A stretch of DNA of 64,000 bases from Proteobacteria bacterium UBA5680 (GTDB lineage: Bacteria; Pseudomonadota; Gammaproteobacteria; Arenicellales; UBA5680). The DNA is taken from positions 68,743 through 132,742 of the forward strand of contig DIIC01000044.1 in the NCBI GenBank assembly GCA_002420425.1, read 5' to 3'. A program made the translations under genes and the position numbers. How positions within the stretch are numbered: the first letter of the stretch is position 1; each line of letters opens with the position of its first letter. Below, in pieces: positions 10,600 to 53,508 of the stretch. The notes under the pieces are model-generated. The model saw only the letters and a list, made by a program, of their open reading frames with translations. It was not told the origin of the DNA and searched no databases.

Positions 10600-10675
10600 T
10601 GGTGGCCAGGGGCAGAATTGAACTGCCGACACGAGGATTTTCAGTCCACTGCTCTACCAACTGAGCTACCTGGCC
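10600..10675 (-). tRNA. tRNA-Phe (anticodon GAA)
   Basis: The reverse complement GGCCAGGTAGCTCAGTTGGTAGAGCAGTGGACTGAAAATCCTCGTGTCGGCAGTTCAATTCTGCCCCTGGCCACCA folds as a cloverleaf with anticodon loop CTGAAAA and an encoded CCA. Confidence 0.95.
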
Positions 10676-26928: not shown

Positions 26929-27002
26929 TGGAGCGGGTGATGGGAATCGAACCCACGTTATTAGCTTGGGAAGCTAAAGTTCTACCATTGAACTACACCC
27001 GC
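26929..27002 (-). tRNA. tRNA-Gly (anticodon CCC)
   Basis: The reverse complement GCGGGTGTAGTTCAATGGTAGAACTTTAGCTTCCCAAGCTAATAACGTGGGTTCGATTCCCATCACCCGCTCCA folds as a cloverleaf with anticodon loop TTCCCAA. Confidence 0.9.
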
Positions 27003-45406: not shown

Positions 45407-48400
45407 TTAACTTCCGGCAGGATCGTAGCCGAGAACCGACCCCAGAGATTGCTCCACACTGAGCAGATCCAAGCCCTGACGATCGGCATAATCTTTGGCC
45501 TGATCCTGCCCAATCTTCCCTATCCCAAAATAGCGGGCAGAGGGGTGGGAGAAGTACCAACCGCTTACTGATGCAGCGGGCAGCATTGACCAACTCTCGG
45601 TAAGGGCTATCCCAGCCTTTTCTTCCGCCTCAAGTACCCTCCAGAGGGCGCTCTTGCCAGAGTGGTCTGGACAGGCGGGGTAACCGGGGGCAGGGCGAAT
45701 CCCCTGATATTGCTCCTTAATCAAGGCTTCATTATCCAGGCTCTCTTGCGGTGCATACTCCCAAAGCTCTTTCCGAACCTTCAGATGCATGTATTCTGCA
45801 AAGGCCTCGGCCAGACGGTCTGCCAGCGCTTTTAGCATTATTGATGAGTAATCATCGTGCTGCTGCTGAAAAGCTTTGGCCCGTTCAGCAACACCAATAC
45901 CGGTTGTCACCGCAAATGCGCCGAGGTAATCGGCGACCCCACTCTCTTTTGGGGCGATGAAGTCTGCTAGCGAGAGATTGGAACCACTCTCTCCACGATC
46001 CATCTGCTGGCGCAGAAAGTGACAAGTTGCCAGCTTCTCCTGTCGGCTCTCATCAATATAGAGATCAATATCGTCACCTCGGGTGTTGGCGGGGTAAAAC
46101 CCCACAACACCTCTTGCCTCGATCCACTCCTCCTCGACCATGACATCCAGCGTCTTTCGGGCATCAGAGTAGACCCGGCGTGCCTCCTCACCCTGCCTTG
46201 AGTCATCCAGAATGGCAGGATATTTCCCTTTCAGCTCCCACACCCTGAAGAAGGGGCCCCAATCGATAAAATCGACCAGTCTCTCCAATGGCGTGCCGCC
46301 ATACTCTCGTACCCCCAAAAAAGAGGGTTTTTTCGGCTGGTAGGCTTGCCAGTCTGTTACCAGCTTGTTCTTTCGGGAGGCCTCTATTGACTGCCTGACC
46401 TGGCTGACCTGACGGGTCTCGCGCTGTTCTCGAATATGACGATAAGAGGCGGCCACATCAGAAGCATACTGCTTACCCTTGGACTCACTCAGCAACCCGC
46501 TCGCCACCCCTACGGCTCTTGAGGCATCCGGCACATAGACCACTGGTGATGAATAACAGGGGGCGATCTTTACCGCAGTATGTACTTTTGAAGCCGTTGC
46601 GCCCCCCACTATCAGGGGCACCTTAAACCCCTGGCGTTCAAGCTCACTGGCCAGATGAACCATCTCCTCAAGAGAGGGGGTGATGAGTCCGGAGATGCCG
46701 ATCAGATCGCAGTTTTGCTCTTTGGCCGCAGCCAAAATCTTTTCGGCGGGAACCATCACTCCGAGGTCAATAACCTCATAGCCATTGCACTCCATCACCA
46801 CGCCAACAATATTCTTTCCTATATCGTGAACATCGCCTTTGGCCGTTGCCATCAACAGCTTCCCCTGAGTGGTCATGCCTTCAGTGCCCTTGTCCTTGGC
46901 AAGGTATGGGTCGAGATAGGCAACCGCCCGTTTCATCACCCTTGCTGATTTAACCACCTGGGGAAGAAACATCTTGCCTTCGCCAAACAGGTCGCCGACC
47001 CGGTTCATTCCACTCATCAGCGGCCCCTCTATAACCTCCAGTGGGCGCTCAAACTGACCTCTTGCCTCTTCAGTATCTTCCTCAATGAAATCCGTGATCC
47101 CTTTTACCAGAGCATGCTCAAGACGCTCCTCTACAGGCCACTGGCGCCATTCAAGCCCCTGAACAGTGCTCTCTTTCGTCTCTTCGACCACACTCGCAGC
47201 CACCTCAATAAGACGTTCTGTGGCATCCTCTCTGCGGTTTAGCACCACATCCTCCACCCGCTCTCGGAGGCCTGATTCAATATCTTCGTAGATGGCCAAC
47301 TGCCCTGCGTTGACAATGCCCATTCCAAGACCCGCTTTGATTGCGTGGTAGAGAAAGACGGCATGAATAGCCTCACGCACCGGGTTGTTACCACGAAATG
47401 AAAACGAAACATTGGAGATTCCACCTGATATCAGCACCTCCGGCATCTCTTCTCTGATCTGCCGAGTCGCTTCAATGAAATCAACGGCATACTGGTCATG
47501 CTCTTCAATACCGGTAGCGATTGCAAACACATTGGGGTCAAAGATGATGTTTTCAGACCGGAAGCCGACCTTCTCCACCAGCAGCTCATAGGAGCGCCTG
47601 CAGATCGAAATCCGGCGCTCCAGGGAGTCTGCCTGCCCCTGTTCATCAAAAGCCATCACCACCACGGCAGCGCCATACTGTTTCACTCTCCTCGCCTGGT
47701 GAAGAAAAGAGTCCTCTCCCTCTTTCAAGCTGATCGAGTTAACAACTCCCTTGCCCTGAAGGCACTTCAAGCCCTCTTCAATCACCTCCCACCGTGATGA
47801 GTCAATCATCACCGGAACTCGGGCTATGTCGGGTTCTGCCGCAATCAGCCGCAGAAATTTTGACATCGCAGCGGCTGAGTCCAGCATCGCTTCGTCCATA
47901 TTGATATCGATTATCTGGGCCCCATTTTCAACCTGGTCCCGGGCCACATCGAGAGCGGTCTCATAATCCTCTTCCAGAATGAGGCGTCTAAAGCGCGCCG
48001 ACCCGGTCACATTGGTCCGCTCTCCTACATTGACAAAGAGTGAGCTTTTATCAATCTCCAGAGGTTCCAGGCCTGAAAGCAGGCAGTGGTGTTGGGACGG
48101 CCTCTGACGCCTCGGTTGCTGATCTGCCACAGCCTCATCTATCGCACCAATATGTTCAGGAGTGGTTCCACAGCATCCGCCTACAATATTGAGCAGGCCT
48201 GATTGGGCCCACTCTCTAATATGGGTTGCCATTTCAGCAGGGGTCTCATCATACTCACCGAATTCATTGGGCAGCCCGGCATTGGGATGAGCCGAGATAG
48301 CCGTATCGGCGACAGCTGCCAACTCCTGAATATGAGGCCTGAGGGCATCAGCACCCAAGGCGCAGTTAAGACCGATGCTCATCAACTCTCCATGGGACAG

Positions 48401-49105
48401 GGAAGCCCAAAAAGCAGTTGGAGTCTGGCCGGAGAGAGTCCTTCCCGACTGGTCGGTGATGGTTCCGGACACCATCAGTGGAAGCCGTACCCCCAATGAC
48501 TCAAAGGCCATAAAACAGGCATAGAGCGCTGCTTTTGCATTGAGTGTATCGAAAATTGTTTCAATCAGAAGAACATCTGAACCGCCTTCGATCAACCCTT
48601 CGGCCGCCTCCTGATAGGTCTCAACCAATTGATTGAAATCGACATTTCTAAATCCAGGATCATTGACATCAGGAGAGAGGCTTGCTGTTCGGTTGGTGGG
48701 GCCCAAAACGCCGGCGACAAAGCGGGGTCGGTCTGGATTGCTTGTGGTTTTCGATAGTACGGCCTCTTTGGCGATAGCGGCCGCCTTGAAATTAATCTCT
48801 TTTGCCAATGACGCCATCTTGTAGTCAGCCAGAGAGATGCGGTTGGCATTAAAGGTGTTGGTCTCAATAATATCCGCACCGGCTTCGAGGTAGGCACTAT
48901 GAATTTCGCTGATAATCTCGGGCTGTGAGAGGGTGAGCAGATCATTATTTCCCTTTACCTCTGCCTCCCAATCTGCAAAACGTTGCCCTCGATAGCCCGC
49001 TTCGTCAAGATTGTATTTCTGGATCATGGTGCCCATAGCACCATCAAGGATAAGAATAGACTCTTGCAGGCGCTGGTGTAATAACCCGCTGTGATCAATA
49101 CTCAT
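45407..49105 (-). CDS. metH: Cobalamin-dependent methionine synthase
   Basis: 1232 aa, with all modules in order: Hcy-binding (ILDGAMGT), pterin-binding, B12-binding (GDVHDIGKN) and the AdoMet activation domain. Confidence 0.95.
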
Positions 49106-49107
49106 CT

Positions 49108-49947
49108 TCAGGCTAATGAACCCATGGCTTTGACGACCCTAAGCACCGGGCCAGACCGGTTGAGGGTATAAAAGTGAAGTCCGGGCGCGTCTCCTTCGAT
49201 CAACTGATTACAGAGCAGGGCTACAACATCGGCTCCAAAGGCGCGCAGGGAGTCGAGGTCATCCTGGTAGTCTTCAAGACGACGACGGATCCACCGGGGA
49301 ATCTCTGTTCCGCAGGTATCAGAAAAACGAGCGAGTTGTTTGTAATTGGTAATCGGCATTATCCCCGGGACTACCGGTATGGTAATCCCAAGGTCAGCGA
49401 TATCATCCCGAAATCTGAGGTATGCATCGACATTATAGAAATACTGGGTTATCGCAGAATCTGCTCCTGCCTTGACTTTATCCCTGAAAAAACCGATATC
49501 CTCCCTGAAGGAGGGTGTTTCTGGGTGTGCTTCCGGATAGGCTGCAACATCAATATGAAAAGCGCTGCCACTTATCTCCCGAATAAACTCAATCAGTTCG
49601 ATAGCATAACGAAAGTCACCGTGCTCGATCATTCCAGAGGGACGATCCCCCCTAAGAACAACCAGGCGCTGCACACCAATAGAGCGGTAGTGCTCAAGGA
49701 GCGCTGAAACAGAATCACGCGTCTCTCCGACTCCGGTAAGGTGGGGAACTGCAGGAGTAACCCCCTCTTCAGCAATCTCTTCAATTGCTTGGAGTGTCCC
49801 CTCTCGAGTGCTTCCTCCAGCGCCTGAGGTCACTGAATAAAATTCTGGGTTCAGCTCGGTGAGGGCCAATCGGCTCTCCCTCGCCCTTTGATGACCCTCA
49901 TTCGCCCGAATTGGGAAAAATTCGCAGCTGTATTGCCCCTGAGTCAT
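49108..49947 (-). CDS. metF: 5,10-methylenetetrahydrofolate reductase
   Basis: [31 protein letters not shown] and the [13 protein letters not shown] motifs. Start trimmed to ATG 49947; the stop is 2 nt from the metH start. Confidence 0.9.
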
Positions 49948-49969
49948 TGGTGCTGAACCCTTGATAGAA

Positions 49970-51388
49970 TTAATAACGGTAGTGGTCTGGTTTAAAAGGC
50001 CCCTCACTCGGGACATCAATATAGACCGCCTGCTCCGGAGTAAGTTTGGTCAACCGGGCACCAATTTTGCCGAGGTGTAACTTTGCCACTTTTTCATCCA
50101 GTTGCTTGGGCAACACATAGACCCGGTTGTCATACTGGTCAGGATTATTCAACAGCTCCATCTGAGCCAGAACCTGATTGGTAAATGAGTTGGACATGAC
50201 GAAACTGGGGTGGCCGGTTGCACACCCCAGATTTACCAGCCGGCCCTCTGCAAGAAGGATGATCCGTTTTCCATCGGGGAAAATAATATGGTCTACCTGA
50301 GGCTTAATATTATCCCAACTGTAGCGACGCAAGCTGGCAACATCGATCTCATTATCAAAATGTCCAATATTGCAGACAATGGCCTGGTTCTTCATTGCAA
50401 CCATATGGTCATGGCCAATGACGTGGTAGTTCCCGGTAGCTGTTACAAAGATGTCCGCTTCGGGGGCCCCCTCTTCCATGGTGACTACCCGATAGCCTTC
50501 CATTGCCGCCTGAAGGGCGCAGATGGGATCAATCTCAGTCACCCAGACAATACAGCCCAGACCACGAAGCGACTGGGCACACCCTTTACCCACATCACCG
50601 TATCCGGCAACCAGGGCGATCTTGCCGGCCATCATCACATCAGTTGCACGTTTGATTCCATCTACCAATGACTCCCGACACCCATATAGGTTATCGAACT
50701 TACTTTTGGTAACCGAATCATTAACATTGATTGCGGGAAAAGGCAGTGTCCCGGTGGCCTCCATCTGATAGAGGCGGTGCACGCCTGTGGTTGTCTCTTC
50801 TGTCACCCCACGAATGTTCTTCAGTATATTGGAGTACCAGCCAGGTGATTCTTCCAGTCGCACCCGTATGGCGGCGTAGAGTGCGACCTCTTCTTCACTG
50901 GTTGGATTATCGAGTACGGCAGGATCCTCCTCTGCCTTGGCACCAAGGTTGATGAGCAGGGTCGCATCCCCACCATCATCCAGAATCATGTTGGGTGTTC
51001 CGCCATCGCCCCACTCCATCACCCGATGGGTGTAGTTCCAGTACTCCTCCAGCGTCTCCCCCTTGTAGGCAAATACCGGAATGCCGCTTGTTGCAATCGC
51101 TGCTGCCGCATGGTCCTGGGTGGAGAAGATATTACATGAGACCCAACGCACCTCGGCACCCAGAATCACCAATGTCTCGATCAACACCGCGGTCTGAATC
51201 GTCATGTGGAGACTACCGGCAATACGCGCCCCTTTGAGCGGCTGGCTCTTTGCGTATTCATCACGGAGTGCCATCAACCCTGGCATCTCCGTTTCAGCTA
51301 TTGCAATCTCCTTGCGTCCCCACTCTGATAGAGAGAGATCGGCTACATGGAAATCCTGGTTGGTCACTTCTGCTGTCTGTGTCGACAT
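49970..51388 (-). CDS. ahcY: Adenosylhomocysteinase
   Basis: [37 protein letters not shown] (NAD site), GHFDNEID. Start trimmed to ATG 51388 with GGAGG upstream; the ORF track extends to 51508. Confidence 0.95.
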
Positions 51389-51416
51389 GGTGCCTCCTAG
51401 TGCTTCTAAAGAAGGG

Positions 51417-52592
51417 TTATCTCTCCAGGCCTGCAGCCTCACGAAGCTGCTCTGCCCGGTCTGTTGACTCCCATGGGAATCCCGGCTCTTCACGACCAAA
51501 ATGACCATAGGCCGCTGTCTTCTGGTAGTTGACCCGATCAGTGTTCAACAGATCCAGCATCTTCAGGAGCCCATAAGGTCGAAGGTCAAAATGCTCACGG
51601 ATCAATGTTTCAATTTGATTGTCGGCAACTTTACCGGTACCAAAGGTATTGACCATCACTGATGTGGGCTCAGCCACACCAATGGCATAGGAGGTTTGAA
51701 TCTCACATCGTTCAGCAAGTCCGGCAGCTACAATATTTTTAGCCACATAGCGACTTGCGTAGGCGGCAGATCGATCAACCTTGGAAGGGTCTTTGCCAGA
51801 AAATGCACCCCCCCCATGATGAGCTGAGCCACCGTATGTATCGACAATGATTTTACGCCCTGTCAGGCCGCAGTCACCAACCGGGCCTCCGATGACAAAG
51901 GCACCGGTAGGGTTGATATGAATCTTGGTGCTGTTATCGATCCAGCCTTCAGGCAATACAGGGATAATGATGTTTTCCATTACCGCTTCATGCAGATGGT
52001 CGTTATCAATATCAGGATCATGCTGGGTGGAGAGCACCACCGCATCAAGACCAGCCACCTCTCCCTGCTCGTAGCGAAAAGTCACCTGGCTCTTGGCATC
52101 TGGGCGCAGCCAGGGCAGTACATTGGTCTTGCGCATCTCTGCCTGACGCTCAACAAGTCGATGTGCATAGGTGATCGGGGCGGGCATTAATACATCGGTC
52201 TCATTAGTGGCATAGCCAAACATTAATCCCTGATCGCCAGCCCCCTGATCCTCGGCACGCTCACGATCAACACCCTGGTTAATATCCGCTGACTGCTTGC
52301 CAATCAGTGACATGACCGCACAAGTACTTCCATCGAAGCCAACATCTGAACTGGTATAGCCTATGCCGCAAACCGTATCTCGAACGATCTGCTCCAGATC
52401 AACCCAGGCATCGGTTGTGACCTCACCAGCAACAACAACAGCGCCGGTCTTTATAAGGGTTTCGCACGCAACTCGTGCCGCCTTGTCTTCGGCAATAATA
52501 GCGTCCAGGATGGCATCTGAAATCTGATCGGCCACTTTATCAGGGTGTCCTTCTGAGACCGATTCAGAGGTAAAAAAATAACTGTTACTCAT
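51417..52592 (-). CDS. metK: S-adenosylmethionine synthetase
   Basis: 391 aa. [41 protein letters not shown] and [16 protein letters not shown]. Confidence 0.95.
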
Positions 52593-52605
52593 TAGTCAAA
52601 ACTCC

Positions 52606-52701
52606 ATAAAAAATAAAAAACCCGCAGGGGGCTACCGTGCGGGCTGTTTAGAATCCTGAGACTCATCTGCTCGCTTTAGCGTTGCTTGTAATGCGCCCGC
52701 A
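52606..52701 (-). promoter_or_regulatory. metK leader: intrinsic terminator with mutually exclusive antiterminator (candidate riboswitch/attenuator)
   Basis: In the minus-strand RNA the hairpin CCCGCA..UGCGGG (52643-52621) is followed by UUUUUUAUUUUUU (52620-52606), only about 15 nt before the metK Shine-Dalgarno. An upstream UGCGGGC (52701-52695) can pair with the terminator 5' arm GCCCGCA (52644-52638). Confidence 0.55.
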
Positions 52702-52730
52702 ATCTGAGTTCAAATCAGCGCAATAATGAG

Positions 52731-52758
52731 AATATATTATAAAGACATATCCTGTCAA
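52731..52758 (-). promoter_or_regulatory. Putative sigma-70 promoter of the metK operon
   Basis: On the minus strand: TTGACA (52758-52753), a 16-nt spacer, then TATATT (52736-52731). This implies a leader of about 130 nt. Confidence 0.5.
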
Positions 52759-52848: not shown

Positions 52849-53508
52849 TTATTCTGAGATGTTCCCTTCGGCCACAAGGCTAGTGTGTGCGGCATAGGCG
52901 CCTGGACCATTAAGCCCACATGAAAACTCAGTTTGTGCCCAAAGGGCTACCGTATCGTCGCTTTTCAGTTGGTAGGTCCCCAGATTGTAGTCCTTGTAGA
53001 TGCCATATTTCCCTGTCTTATCTGGACAGCTGGAACATGAGCCCCACTGGGCCACCTCTCCGCTTTTTACTGCTTCACCATTTATTCTTAGCTCATAGGG
53101 AGGTGAGCCGGCACATTTCTCATTGACTCCCTTCCAGATGAATGTAAATTCGCCATCGTAGGGAAATGAACTCCAGCTCCATGAGCCATCACAGATCTCA
53201 TTCTCACACCAAACCACATGCCAGCACTCCTCATCCCAGCAGCGGTATTGCCCCGCTCCTGTTCGATCTGCCAAGTTCCCTTTGAATGTCACCGCAATAT
53301 CAAACCCTCCCGTAGAAGGGGTATCAACTTCATAACTTGGGCCTCCTTCGGGACCGGCACCTACATCTCCTTCGGTACCCGGGCCCTCTCCACCCCCGCT
53401 TGAACGCTCATTGAGGAAGTCACAGCCACTCACTGCAAAGAGAGCAAGCGAGACAAAGAGAACAGCACCCAAGGCCTGGTGGAGTACGTTTTTAACTCTC
53501 AAGATCAA
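52849..53508 (-). CDS. Putative secreted lipoprotein, Cys/Trp-rich, function unknown
   Basis: Signal peptide plus lipobox (LFAVSGC), a Gly-rich linker, then a Cys/Trp-rich domain (YRCWDEECWHVVWCENEICDGSWSW). There is no ATG. The candidate starts are TTG at 53508 or, better, TTG at 53502, which lies 7 nt after AAGGAG (53515-53510). It overlaps the ntrC 3' end. Confidence 0.55.
   Translation of the reverse strand: MILRVKNVLHQALGAVLFVSLALFAVSGCDFLNERSSGGGEGPGTEGDVGAGPEGGPSYEVDTPSTGGFDIAVTFKGNLADRTGAGQYRCWDEECWHVVWCENEICDGSWSWSSFPYDGEFTFIWKGVNEKCAGSPPYELRINGEAVKSGEVAQWGSCSSCPDKTGKYGIYKDYNLGTYQLKSDDTVALWAQTEFSCGLNGPGAYAAHTSLVAEGNISE

Follow-up and report, generated by a model that had tools for sequence, protein, structure and literature searches.

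SAM-II riboswitches, also called the metA element and represented by Rfam family RF00521 (SAM_alpha) and crystal structure 2QWY, are the closest described relatives of the RNA analyzed here. They have been known since 2005, with isolated cases at that time in Bordetella (metX), Coxiella (metE-metF), and Bacteroides. A near-consensus promoter usually lies a few nucleotides before stem P1 and an intrinsic terminator often follows P2, which is the arrangement of an OFF switch (Corbino 2005, PMC1273637), and the majority of SAM-II riboswitches are transcriptional (Huang and Lilley, PMC6061858). The aptamer discriminates against S-adenosylhomocysteine (SAH) more than 1000-fold (PMC1273637). In the numbering of the metX crystal structure, U21 and G22 sandwich the adenine of SAM and the unpaired U44 pairs with it, while U11 of L1 together with U21 of P2 is the reported site for the sulfur, which carries a positive charge (PMC3303485). 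Core targets in Alphaproteobacteria are metY, metA, and metX, and when about 200 proteobacterial genomes were surveyed, SAM_alpha was recorded solely for Rhizobiales and Rhodobacterales (PMC4239095). We found no report in the literature of a gammaproteobacterial SAM-II riboswitch upstream of metK.

Other sensors resemble the element described below in part. SAM-V (RF01826) and SAM/SAH (RF01727) riboswitches are likewise H-type pseudoknots that sense SAM, and SAM/SAH precedes metK; both are translational and found in other lineages. SAH riboswitches (RF01057) serve the same methyl-cycle genes ahcY, metF, and metH in Beta- and Gammaproteobacteria and adjoin metK in relatives of our locus, but differ from SAM-II in fold, in ligand, and in their ON logic. 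The SAM-II long-loop family RF01726 of Bacteroidota metK leaders shares the core GAUUUG, AUUGC, and GCUAAAG and the downstream metK, but has a 3-nt P1-L1 junction, a GAGG or GUGG P1, and often a hairpin insertion in L3.

Here, we describe a metK leader of a marine Arenicellales gammaproteobacterium in which a SAM-II riboswitch and an intrinsic terminator very probably act together as a transcriptional OFF switch of a metK-ahcY-metF-metH operon.

Architecture of the metK leader

The leader is encoded on the minus strand of the window, i.e., the whole 64-kb stretch of DNA that was analyzed, and has the following features.

52758..52753 and 52736..52731, minus strand, -35 element TTGACA and -10 element TATATT of a sigma-70-type promoter with a 16-nt spacer
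52669..52722, minus strand, aptamer assigned to SAM-II, an H-type pseudoknot (RF00521 match, our own model R1, covariation in relatives)
52722..52717 and 52697..52692, minus strand, P1 stem, UGCGCU paired with GGCGCA
52716..52711, minus strand, U-rich third strand GAUUUG in L1
52703..52698, minus strand, P2 5' strand AUUGCG, immediately 5' of the P1 3' arm
52691..52682, minus strand, A-rich linker L3
52681..52675, minus strand, P2 3' strand CGCUAAA with an unpaired U at 52678
52681..52674, minus strand, aptamer tail CGC-U-AAAG
52674..52669, minus strand, possible short P2a 3' strand GCGAGC
52695..52701, minus strand, candidate antiterminator strand AT1, UGCGGGC (P2 5' strand plus the first two bases of the P1 3' arm), complementary to GCCCGCA at 52644..52638
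52669..52674, minus strand, candidate antiterminator strand AT2, tail GCGAGC, pairing with GCCCGC at 52644..52639 with one A.C mismatch
52651..52664, minus strand, spacer hairpin GAGUC-UCAG-GAUUC between aptamer and terminator, seen in minimum free energy (MFE) folds
52608..52645, minus strand, intrinsic terminator (stem, 11-nt loop, U tract)
52645..52638, minus strand, terminator 5' arm AGCCCGCA
52637..52627, minus strand, terminator loop CGGUAGCCCCC, 11 nt
52626..52619, minus strand, terminator 3' arm UGCGGGUU
52620..52608, minus strand, U6AU6 tract
52592..52666, minus strand, 24-codon upstream open reading frame (uORF) with a UAAUG overlap with metK, judged non-coding
52602..52605, minus strand, metK Shine-Dalgarno sequence GGAG, 9 nt 5' of the AUG at 52592
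51417..52592, minus strand, metK (NCBIfam)
49970..51388, minus strand, ahcY (NCBIfam), after a 28-nt spacer following metK
49108..about 49950, minus strand, metF (NCBIfam), start uncertain
45407..49105, minus strand, metH (NCBIfam)
45407..52592, minus strand, metK-ahcY-metF-metH, the putatively regulated operon

The first-pass annotation had read a promoter of the form TTGACA-16 nt-TATATT with a leader of about 130 nt, and this was found as claimed. The promoter scores 11/12 and is the top promoter-like site of the region; transcription is predicted to start near 52727..52724, about 7 nt past the -10 element and a few nucleotides before P1, which gives a leader of about 132 nt. The strong terminator that had been noted ahead of the metK Shine-Dalgarno sequence is present as well, with a free energy of -16.3 kcal/mol for the hairpin folded alone and a U6AU6 tract, and the hairpin recurs in all folds computed for the leader. 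As its 11-nt loop is longer than a consensus terminator scanner allows, that scanner gave merely an inner variant with a shorter stem-loop.

At the curated gathering thresholds, the Rfam scan of the 64-kb window returned two tRNAs only and was silent on the metK leader, as the score of the leader lies below the 36-bit cut-off of RF00521. In E-value mode, RF00521 spans 52731..52655 on the minus strand over model positions 1-79 with 30.3 bits (E 4e-5), a match below the gathering score. The models of SAM-I, SAM-III to SAM-VI, SAM/SAH, and SAH had no match in the leader in this mode, and the SAM-II long-loop model RF01726 had no match in the leader at E<=10. Our own model R1 recovered a single copy within the 64-kb window.

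The leader has a P1 stem that closes a loop with the U-rich GAUUUG L1 strand, both pseudoknot strands (AUUGCG / CGCUAAAG), and an H-type P2 in which the GCUAAAG tail pairs with the 3' portion of this loop and leaves one U unpaired opposite the ligand. These parts are shared with SAM-II, as are the promoter a few nucleotides 5' of P1, the terminator past P2, the downstream methionine/SAM gene, and the presumed OFF logic; the succession of promoter, aptamer, and terminator is exactly the layout described for this class (PMC1273637). When aligned to the metX numbering (PMC3303485), with the alignment as the only basis, the ligand-contact nucleotides U10-U12 in L1, U21, G22, U44, and A45-A47 are all present, and at position 19 the leader shares the A of the crystallised metX RNA. 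Judged by its sequence and by comparison with its relatives, the leader aptamer is a SAM-II aptamer, slightly divergent, and not a new RNA class. It differs from described RF00521 members in its gammaproteobacterial (Arenicellales) rather than alphaproteobacterial host, in a P2a that is short or weak, and, as compared to alphaproteobacterial SAM-II, in having metK as first gene of an operon with ahcY-metF-metH. A P2a helix extending past G18-C49/C16-G50 was considered and is unsupported in the gammaproteobacterial group.

Related leaders and covariation

The MetK of the window is identical to a protein annotated for an Arenicellales metagenome-assembled genome and is encoded on many marine contigs, including those from Tara samples. 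Strains with 99-100% identical MetK have almost identical leaders, and further strains of the same species show almost no leader variation. The more distant locus L081 (MetK 94% identical) has another upstream gene and a largely diverged promoter spacer, with TTGACA and the position of the -10 element kept, yet it retains about 92% identity over the stretch that begins with P1 and ends with the terminator, which indicates selection on the transcribed leader. L207 and L208 (MetK 79-80% identical) have no aptamer in the available DNA upstream of metK, which for L207 amounts to only 108 nt; in both, a sequence resembling an SAH riboswitch was recognised by eye before ahcY. A MetK-based genome scan covering at least 80 loci found the aptamer in no gammaproteobacterial locus among the matches listed, which included beta-type leaders and SAH riboswitches.

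A scan of metagenome contigs with the pattern GATTT...GCTAAAG, set at one spacing to the conserved N-terminus of MetK, recovered at least 120 loci in three groups, namely a Bacteroidota type, a beta type, and a gammaproteobacterial group B. Bacteroidota-type leaders belong to RF01726 (about 65 bits). Group B comprises about 20 leaders among the matches listed; these read AGCGCCGAUUUGAAUUCAGAUUGCGGGCGCU...CGGCUAAAGCG, have aptamers about 80% identical to that of the window, and have MetK clusters that include Hydrogenovibrio crunogenus, Thiomicrorhabdus arctica, Thiomicrospira sp. S5, and Thiogranum sp. The RF00521 cut-off was reached by 3 of the 13 group B loci tested (L086 with 38.6, L137 with 36.4, and L161 with 36.1 bits), and the other ten were just short of it. 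As these relatives straddle the cut-off, the element of the window represents the low-scoring end of the same population. Group B members (L086, L101, L107, L116, and others) also share the order of promoter, aptamer, spacer hairpin, terminator, and metK, with a variable hairpin at the position of the spacer hairpin.

For the analysis of covariation, P1, L1, P2, and the tail of 61 distinct metK-linked aptamers were arranged in anchored fixed columns, which were preferred over a MAFFT or covariance-model alignment that mis-registered P1 of the Bacteroidota sequences. At the four inner positions of P1, pairing is 100% and three to five pair types occur per position; this percentage is inflated by picking the P1 register of each sequence for best pairing. 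The switches of P1 among GAGG/CCUC, GUGG/CCAC, GCGC/GCGC, and CGCC/GGCG occur in constant registers and are genuine despite this choice. The P2 core (U20-A46, U21-A45, G22-C43, C23-G42) is invariant, and the flanking pair 24-41 covaries (AU 33, GC 6, GU 3, UA 2). Overall covariation was 0.438, as compared to 0.139 in shuffles and 0.10-0.20 with partners slid. Group B aptamers have a bulged purine ahead of G42 and use position 40 as the partner of position 24, whereas C41 pairs directly with G24 in the window; L198 shows a G-C to A-U change in the bulged register. The alignment of metK leaders that the first-pass annotation had suggested as a check came out in favour of P1 and one P2 pair, but within the lineage of the window yielded no compensatory changes in the terminator or the antiterminators.

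Terminator, candidate antiterminators, and proposed mechanism

The terminator stem is unchanged across nine related leaders, in which substitutions are confined to the loop and, in one instance, to the loop-closing pair; the spacer hairpin of L081 likewise has only a loop change (C to U). Upstream of the stem, the UGCGGGC copy pointed out by the first-pass annotation is indeed present at 52701..52695, 50 nt upstream of GCCCGCA, but is not identical to the terminator's own 3' arm, which reads UGCGGGU and agrees in 6 of 7 bases. The heptamer UGCGGGC is no rarity in the window, where 14 copies compare with 9.8 expected, but a perfect complement of at least 7 bp to the terminator arm occurs in the upstream leader in just 0.9% of dinucleotide shuffles. 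Both AT1 strands are kept in all relatives compared. The second candidate, AT2, could gain an extra pairing of GCUA with UAGC in the terminator loop, which is found in the window only.

In the window transcript that ends before the terminator 3' arm, the AT2 fold is the MFE structure (-25.5 kcal/mol) and AT1 follows 1.2 kcal/mol above it (-24.3 kcal/mol, pair probability 0.29), while AT1 is the MFE structure of the corresponding L081 transcript (-24.1 versus -22.8 kcal/mol, pair probability 0.94). The UGCGGGC:GCCCGCA pairing is therefore energetically competitive, as had been anticipated, and AT1 and AT2 are predicted to be nearly isoenergetic with the aptamer fold in the lineage of the window. 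Two antiterminator pairings are thus possible, between which sequence and folding energies do not distinguish here. Both use strands that the SAM-bound pseudoknot would sequester, so that the OFF logic would hold either way. After synthesis of the 3' arm, the terminator fold of the full leader is far more stable (-34.8 kcal/mol versus about -24 to -25 kcal/mol for the antiterminator folds), and read-through would thus have to be under kinetic control, as it is in other riboswitches that act on transcription. No compensatory changes for the terminator, AT1, or AT2 were seen among the leaders of this lineage that were compared, because the lineage has almost no sequence variation.

AT2 resembles the antiterminator of group B, which pairs the aptamer tail with a terminator arm. 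In these leaders the sequence of the aptamer tail recurs in the terminator 3' arm (GCUAAAGCGG), and in a transcript cut before this arm 9-11 bp form between the tail and the terminator 5' arm with P1 still folded. Binding of SAM to a group B leader would draw the tail into P2 and thereby free the terminator. The terminator arms of the window differ, with GCCCGCA/UGCGGG in place of a 3' arm that repeats the tail GCUAAAGCG.

From these features we infer that SAM is bound, which way the switch works, and which strands may serve as antiterminator. Transcription would begin a few nucleotides ahead of P1. In the SAM-bound state, the tail CGCUAAAG would pair with AUUGCG in the P1 loop, the UUU strand of L1 would lie in the major groove, and P1 and P2 would be locked. 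The GCCCGCA arm would then be left without an upstream partner, the terminator hairpin would form, and RNA polymerase would halt in U6AU6, some 15 nt short of the ribosome-binding site of metK, leaving the operon off. Without SAM, P2 would be open and the terminator 5' arm would be captured either by UGCGGGC (AT1) or by the freed tail GCGAGC (AT2), with read-through into metK as the result. The proposal of the first-pass annotation that a SAM-type riboswitch with an intrinsic terminator controls the operon is supported.

Among the alternatives, an aptamer that is real and a hairpin that is constitutive or leaky and uncoupled from it, with control exerted mainly on translation or via RNA stability, appears improbable, yet fares best. 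The thermodynamic dominance of the terminator would suit such an arrangement, as would an antiterminator that lacks compensatory changes in the lineage compared, but the terminator 5' arm has complements in two aptamer strands that the ligand would sequester. Similarly, the S. meliloti metA SAM-II terminator had no predictable antiterminator (PMC9373788) and the relative L141 has an aptamer and no terminator, whereas an explicit antiterminator is present in group B. Control that is mainly translational is further disfavoured by the position of the metK Shine-Dalgarno sequence, which is not part of the aptamer but follows 65 nt downstream of P2.

Class of the aptamer and role of the uORF

The first-pass annotation considered an unassigned or new class, and this part of it was not upheld, given the full-length RF00521 match and the close relatives that score above the cut-off. 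A new SAM- or SAH-responsive class, in which the likeness to SAM-II would be superficial and the ligand or the fold different, seems very improbable. It would be in keeping with a score below the cut-off, yet that score comes from a match over the full length of the model with E 4e-5, all structurally assigned contact nucleotides are kept, and the relatives form a continuum across the cut-off. The fold also covaries jointly with the Bacteroidota RF01726 and beta-type aptamers. Sensing of SAH would make regulatory sense in an operon that includes ahcY and is without an SAH riboswitch, and the expression platform is unlike that of the nearest relatives; SAM-II, however, rejects SAH more strongly than a thousandfold (PMC1273637), and the sulfur-site uridines U11 and U21 (PMC3303485) are both present. 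We thus retain the assignment to SAM-II.

A leader-peptide attenuator, with read-through set by ribosomes translating the 24-codon uORF across the terminator, can hardly be entertained: the uORF exists as first read (52666..52592), crosses the terminator, and ends in the UAAUG overlap with metK, but its AUG is ACG in L081, its frame is shifted in L204, L206, and L213 (strains with 99% identical MetK) by the loss of 1 nt from the terminator loop, it lacks Met codons, its Shine-Dalgarno sequence is poor, and RNA structure accounts for the region. With the start codon lost in L081 and the frame shifted in other relatives, the uORF is not conserved and does not qualify as a translatable leader frame with regulatory codons.

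Operon control and platform evolution

The gene assignments of the first-pass annotation, metK-ahcY-metF-metH, were confirmed by NCBIfam. The same order is found in L081 and L204, the genes are tightly spaced, metF and metH overlap at their junction, and no convincing internal terminator was found in the operon. An SAH riboswitch (RF01057) is absent from the 64-kb window at the gathering threshold and from the leader at E<=10, and none was found in L081. Most group B loci, in contrast, carry one between metK and ahcY, where the window has a 28-nt spacer, as do several beta- and gammaproteobacterial genomes. As far as RNA elements are concerned, ahcY and the genes for methionine regeneration of the window would thus be under SAM-OFF control alone, which places SAH hydrolase under SAM-OFF rather than the usual SAH-ON control.

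SAM-II upstream of metK in Gammaproteobacteria is poorly documented, yet it is the same kind of element. Unusual in the present case are the missing SAH riboswitch before ahcY and a terminator platform unlike that of the nearest relatives. It is tempting, if rather doubtful, to propose that SAM-II has become the sole RNA control of the methyl cycle in this lineage, with the SAH-ON element lost and the platform rebuilt to capture of the terminator arm by UGCGGGC of the P2 5' and P1 3' strands. If so, the locus would be an example of platform turnover on a fixed aptamer, as the sister lineages use the 3' tail. Relaxed SAM/SAH specificity that would offset the lost SAH sensor is less likely. More generally, neighbouring lineages appear to have wired one aptamer to differing terminator/antiterminator solutions, which is of interest for the evolution of expression platforms.

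Knowledge of the riboswitch class itself is unchanged by these findings, which also correct an annotation gap. The default Rfam threshold misses the leader of the window, and the scores of its gammaproteobacterial sisters are mostly at the cut-off or slightly below it, so that SAM-II elements upstream of metK are under-called in marine Gammaproteobacteria. Upstream of the leader, ntrB, ntrC, and an unassigned open reading frame of 219 amino acids are encoded on the same strand.

SAM-II-like and SAH leaders upstream of metK

Five metK leaders carry a SAM-II-like core:

L072:4250-4400
L075:5863-5944
L078:5878-5943
L079:5821-5906
L080:623-685

In all five, the core consists of a P1 stem and a CUUGCxx strand that pairs with xxGCUAAAGCG, and this pairing shows clear covariation (GG/CC, AG/CU, GA/UC). 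L1 reads GAGUUA, as opposed to GAUUUG, and these leaders returned no Rfam family matches even at E<=0.1. We suggest that they may represent an unrecognised variant of SAM-II. The leaders derive from Betaproteobacteria (Rhodocyclaceae, Cupriavidus, Pusillimonas, Herbaspirillum). For Betaproteobacteria, metK was described as having no known regulator (Leyn 2014, PMC4239095).

Further metK leaders differ in their platform or linker, or carry the aptamer twice:

L141:10095-10233, minus strand, group B-like aptamer 5' of metK
L192:7551-7720, SAM-II-like aptamer 5' of metK with a linker hairpin insertion
L196:4065-4230, SAM-II-like aptamer 5' of metK with a linker hairpin insertion
L088:998-1170, minus strand, two tandem SAM-II-like aptamers 5' of a single metK
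L152:878-1059, minus strand, two tandem SAM-II-like aptamers 5' of a single metK

The aptamer of L141 resembles the gammaproteobacterial group B leaders and is not followed by a U-tract terminator; control of metK at this locus may be translational. Hydrogenovibrio crunogenus and Thiomicrorhabdus arctica are among the organisms whose MetK clusters with that of L141. The leaders of L192 and L196 possess a terminator downstream of the aptamer and an extra hairpin between P1 and the tail, located in the linker (UACUACCUAGAGUAGU). This hairpin is reminiscent of the SAM-V P3 element as well as of the Bacteroidota 'long loop' insertions. In the tandem arrangement of L088, the first aptamer copy has a terminator-like hairpin of its own, placed ahead of the second copy.

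Two Piscirickettsiaceae MAGs encode a SAH riboswitch directly 5' of metK:

L001:2131-2205, 45.8 bits
L062:5849-5923, 52.3 bits

According to Leyn 2014 (PMC4239095), metK is not under SAH riboswitch control.

Alternative pairing of L1

The MFE folds of the window leader pair L1 with the P2 5' strand:

52711-52716, minus strand, L1, GAUUUG
52701-52706, minus strand, P2 5' strand, CAGAUU

Every MFE fold, for the window as for group B, has this pairing as a continuation of P1, and both strands are invariant. It could constitute a ligand-free alternative that hides both ligand-binding strands.

Upstream ORF and other RNA genes in the window

An ORF directly follows ntrB-ntrC, upstream of the leader:

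52849-53508, minus strand, 219-aa ORF

It has no NCBIfam match. Strain relatives also carry counterparts, called there at 147-233 aa and lacking a Pfam hit, and in L081, a relative with 94% identical MetK, its place is taken by a 932-aa protein, likewise without a Pfam hit. At the gathering threshold, the Rfam scan of the window yielded nothing beyond two tRNA genes:

10603-10675, minus strand, tRNA gene
26932-27002, minus strand, tRNA gene
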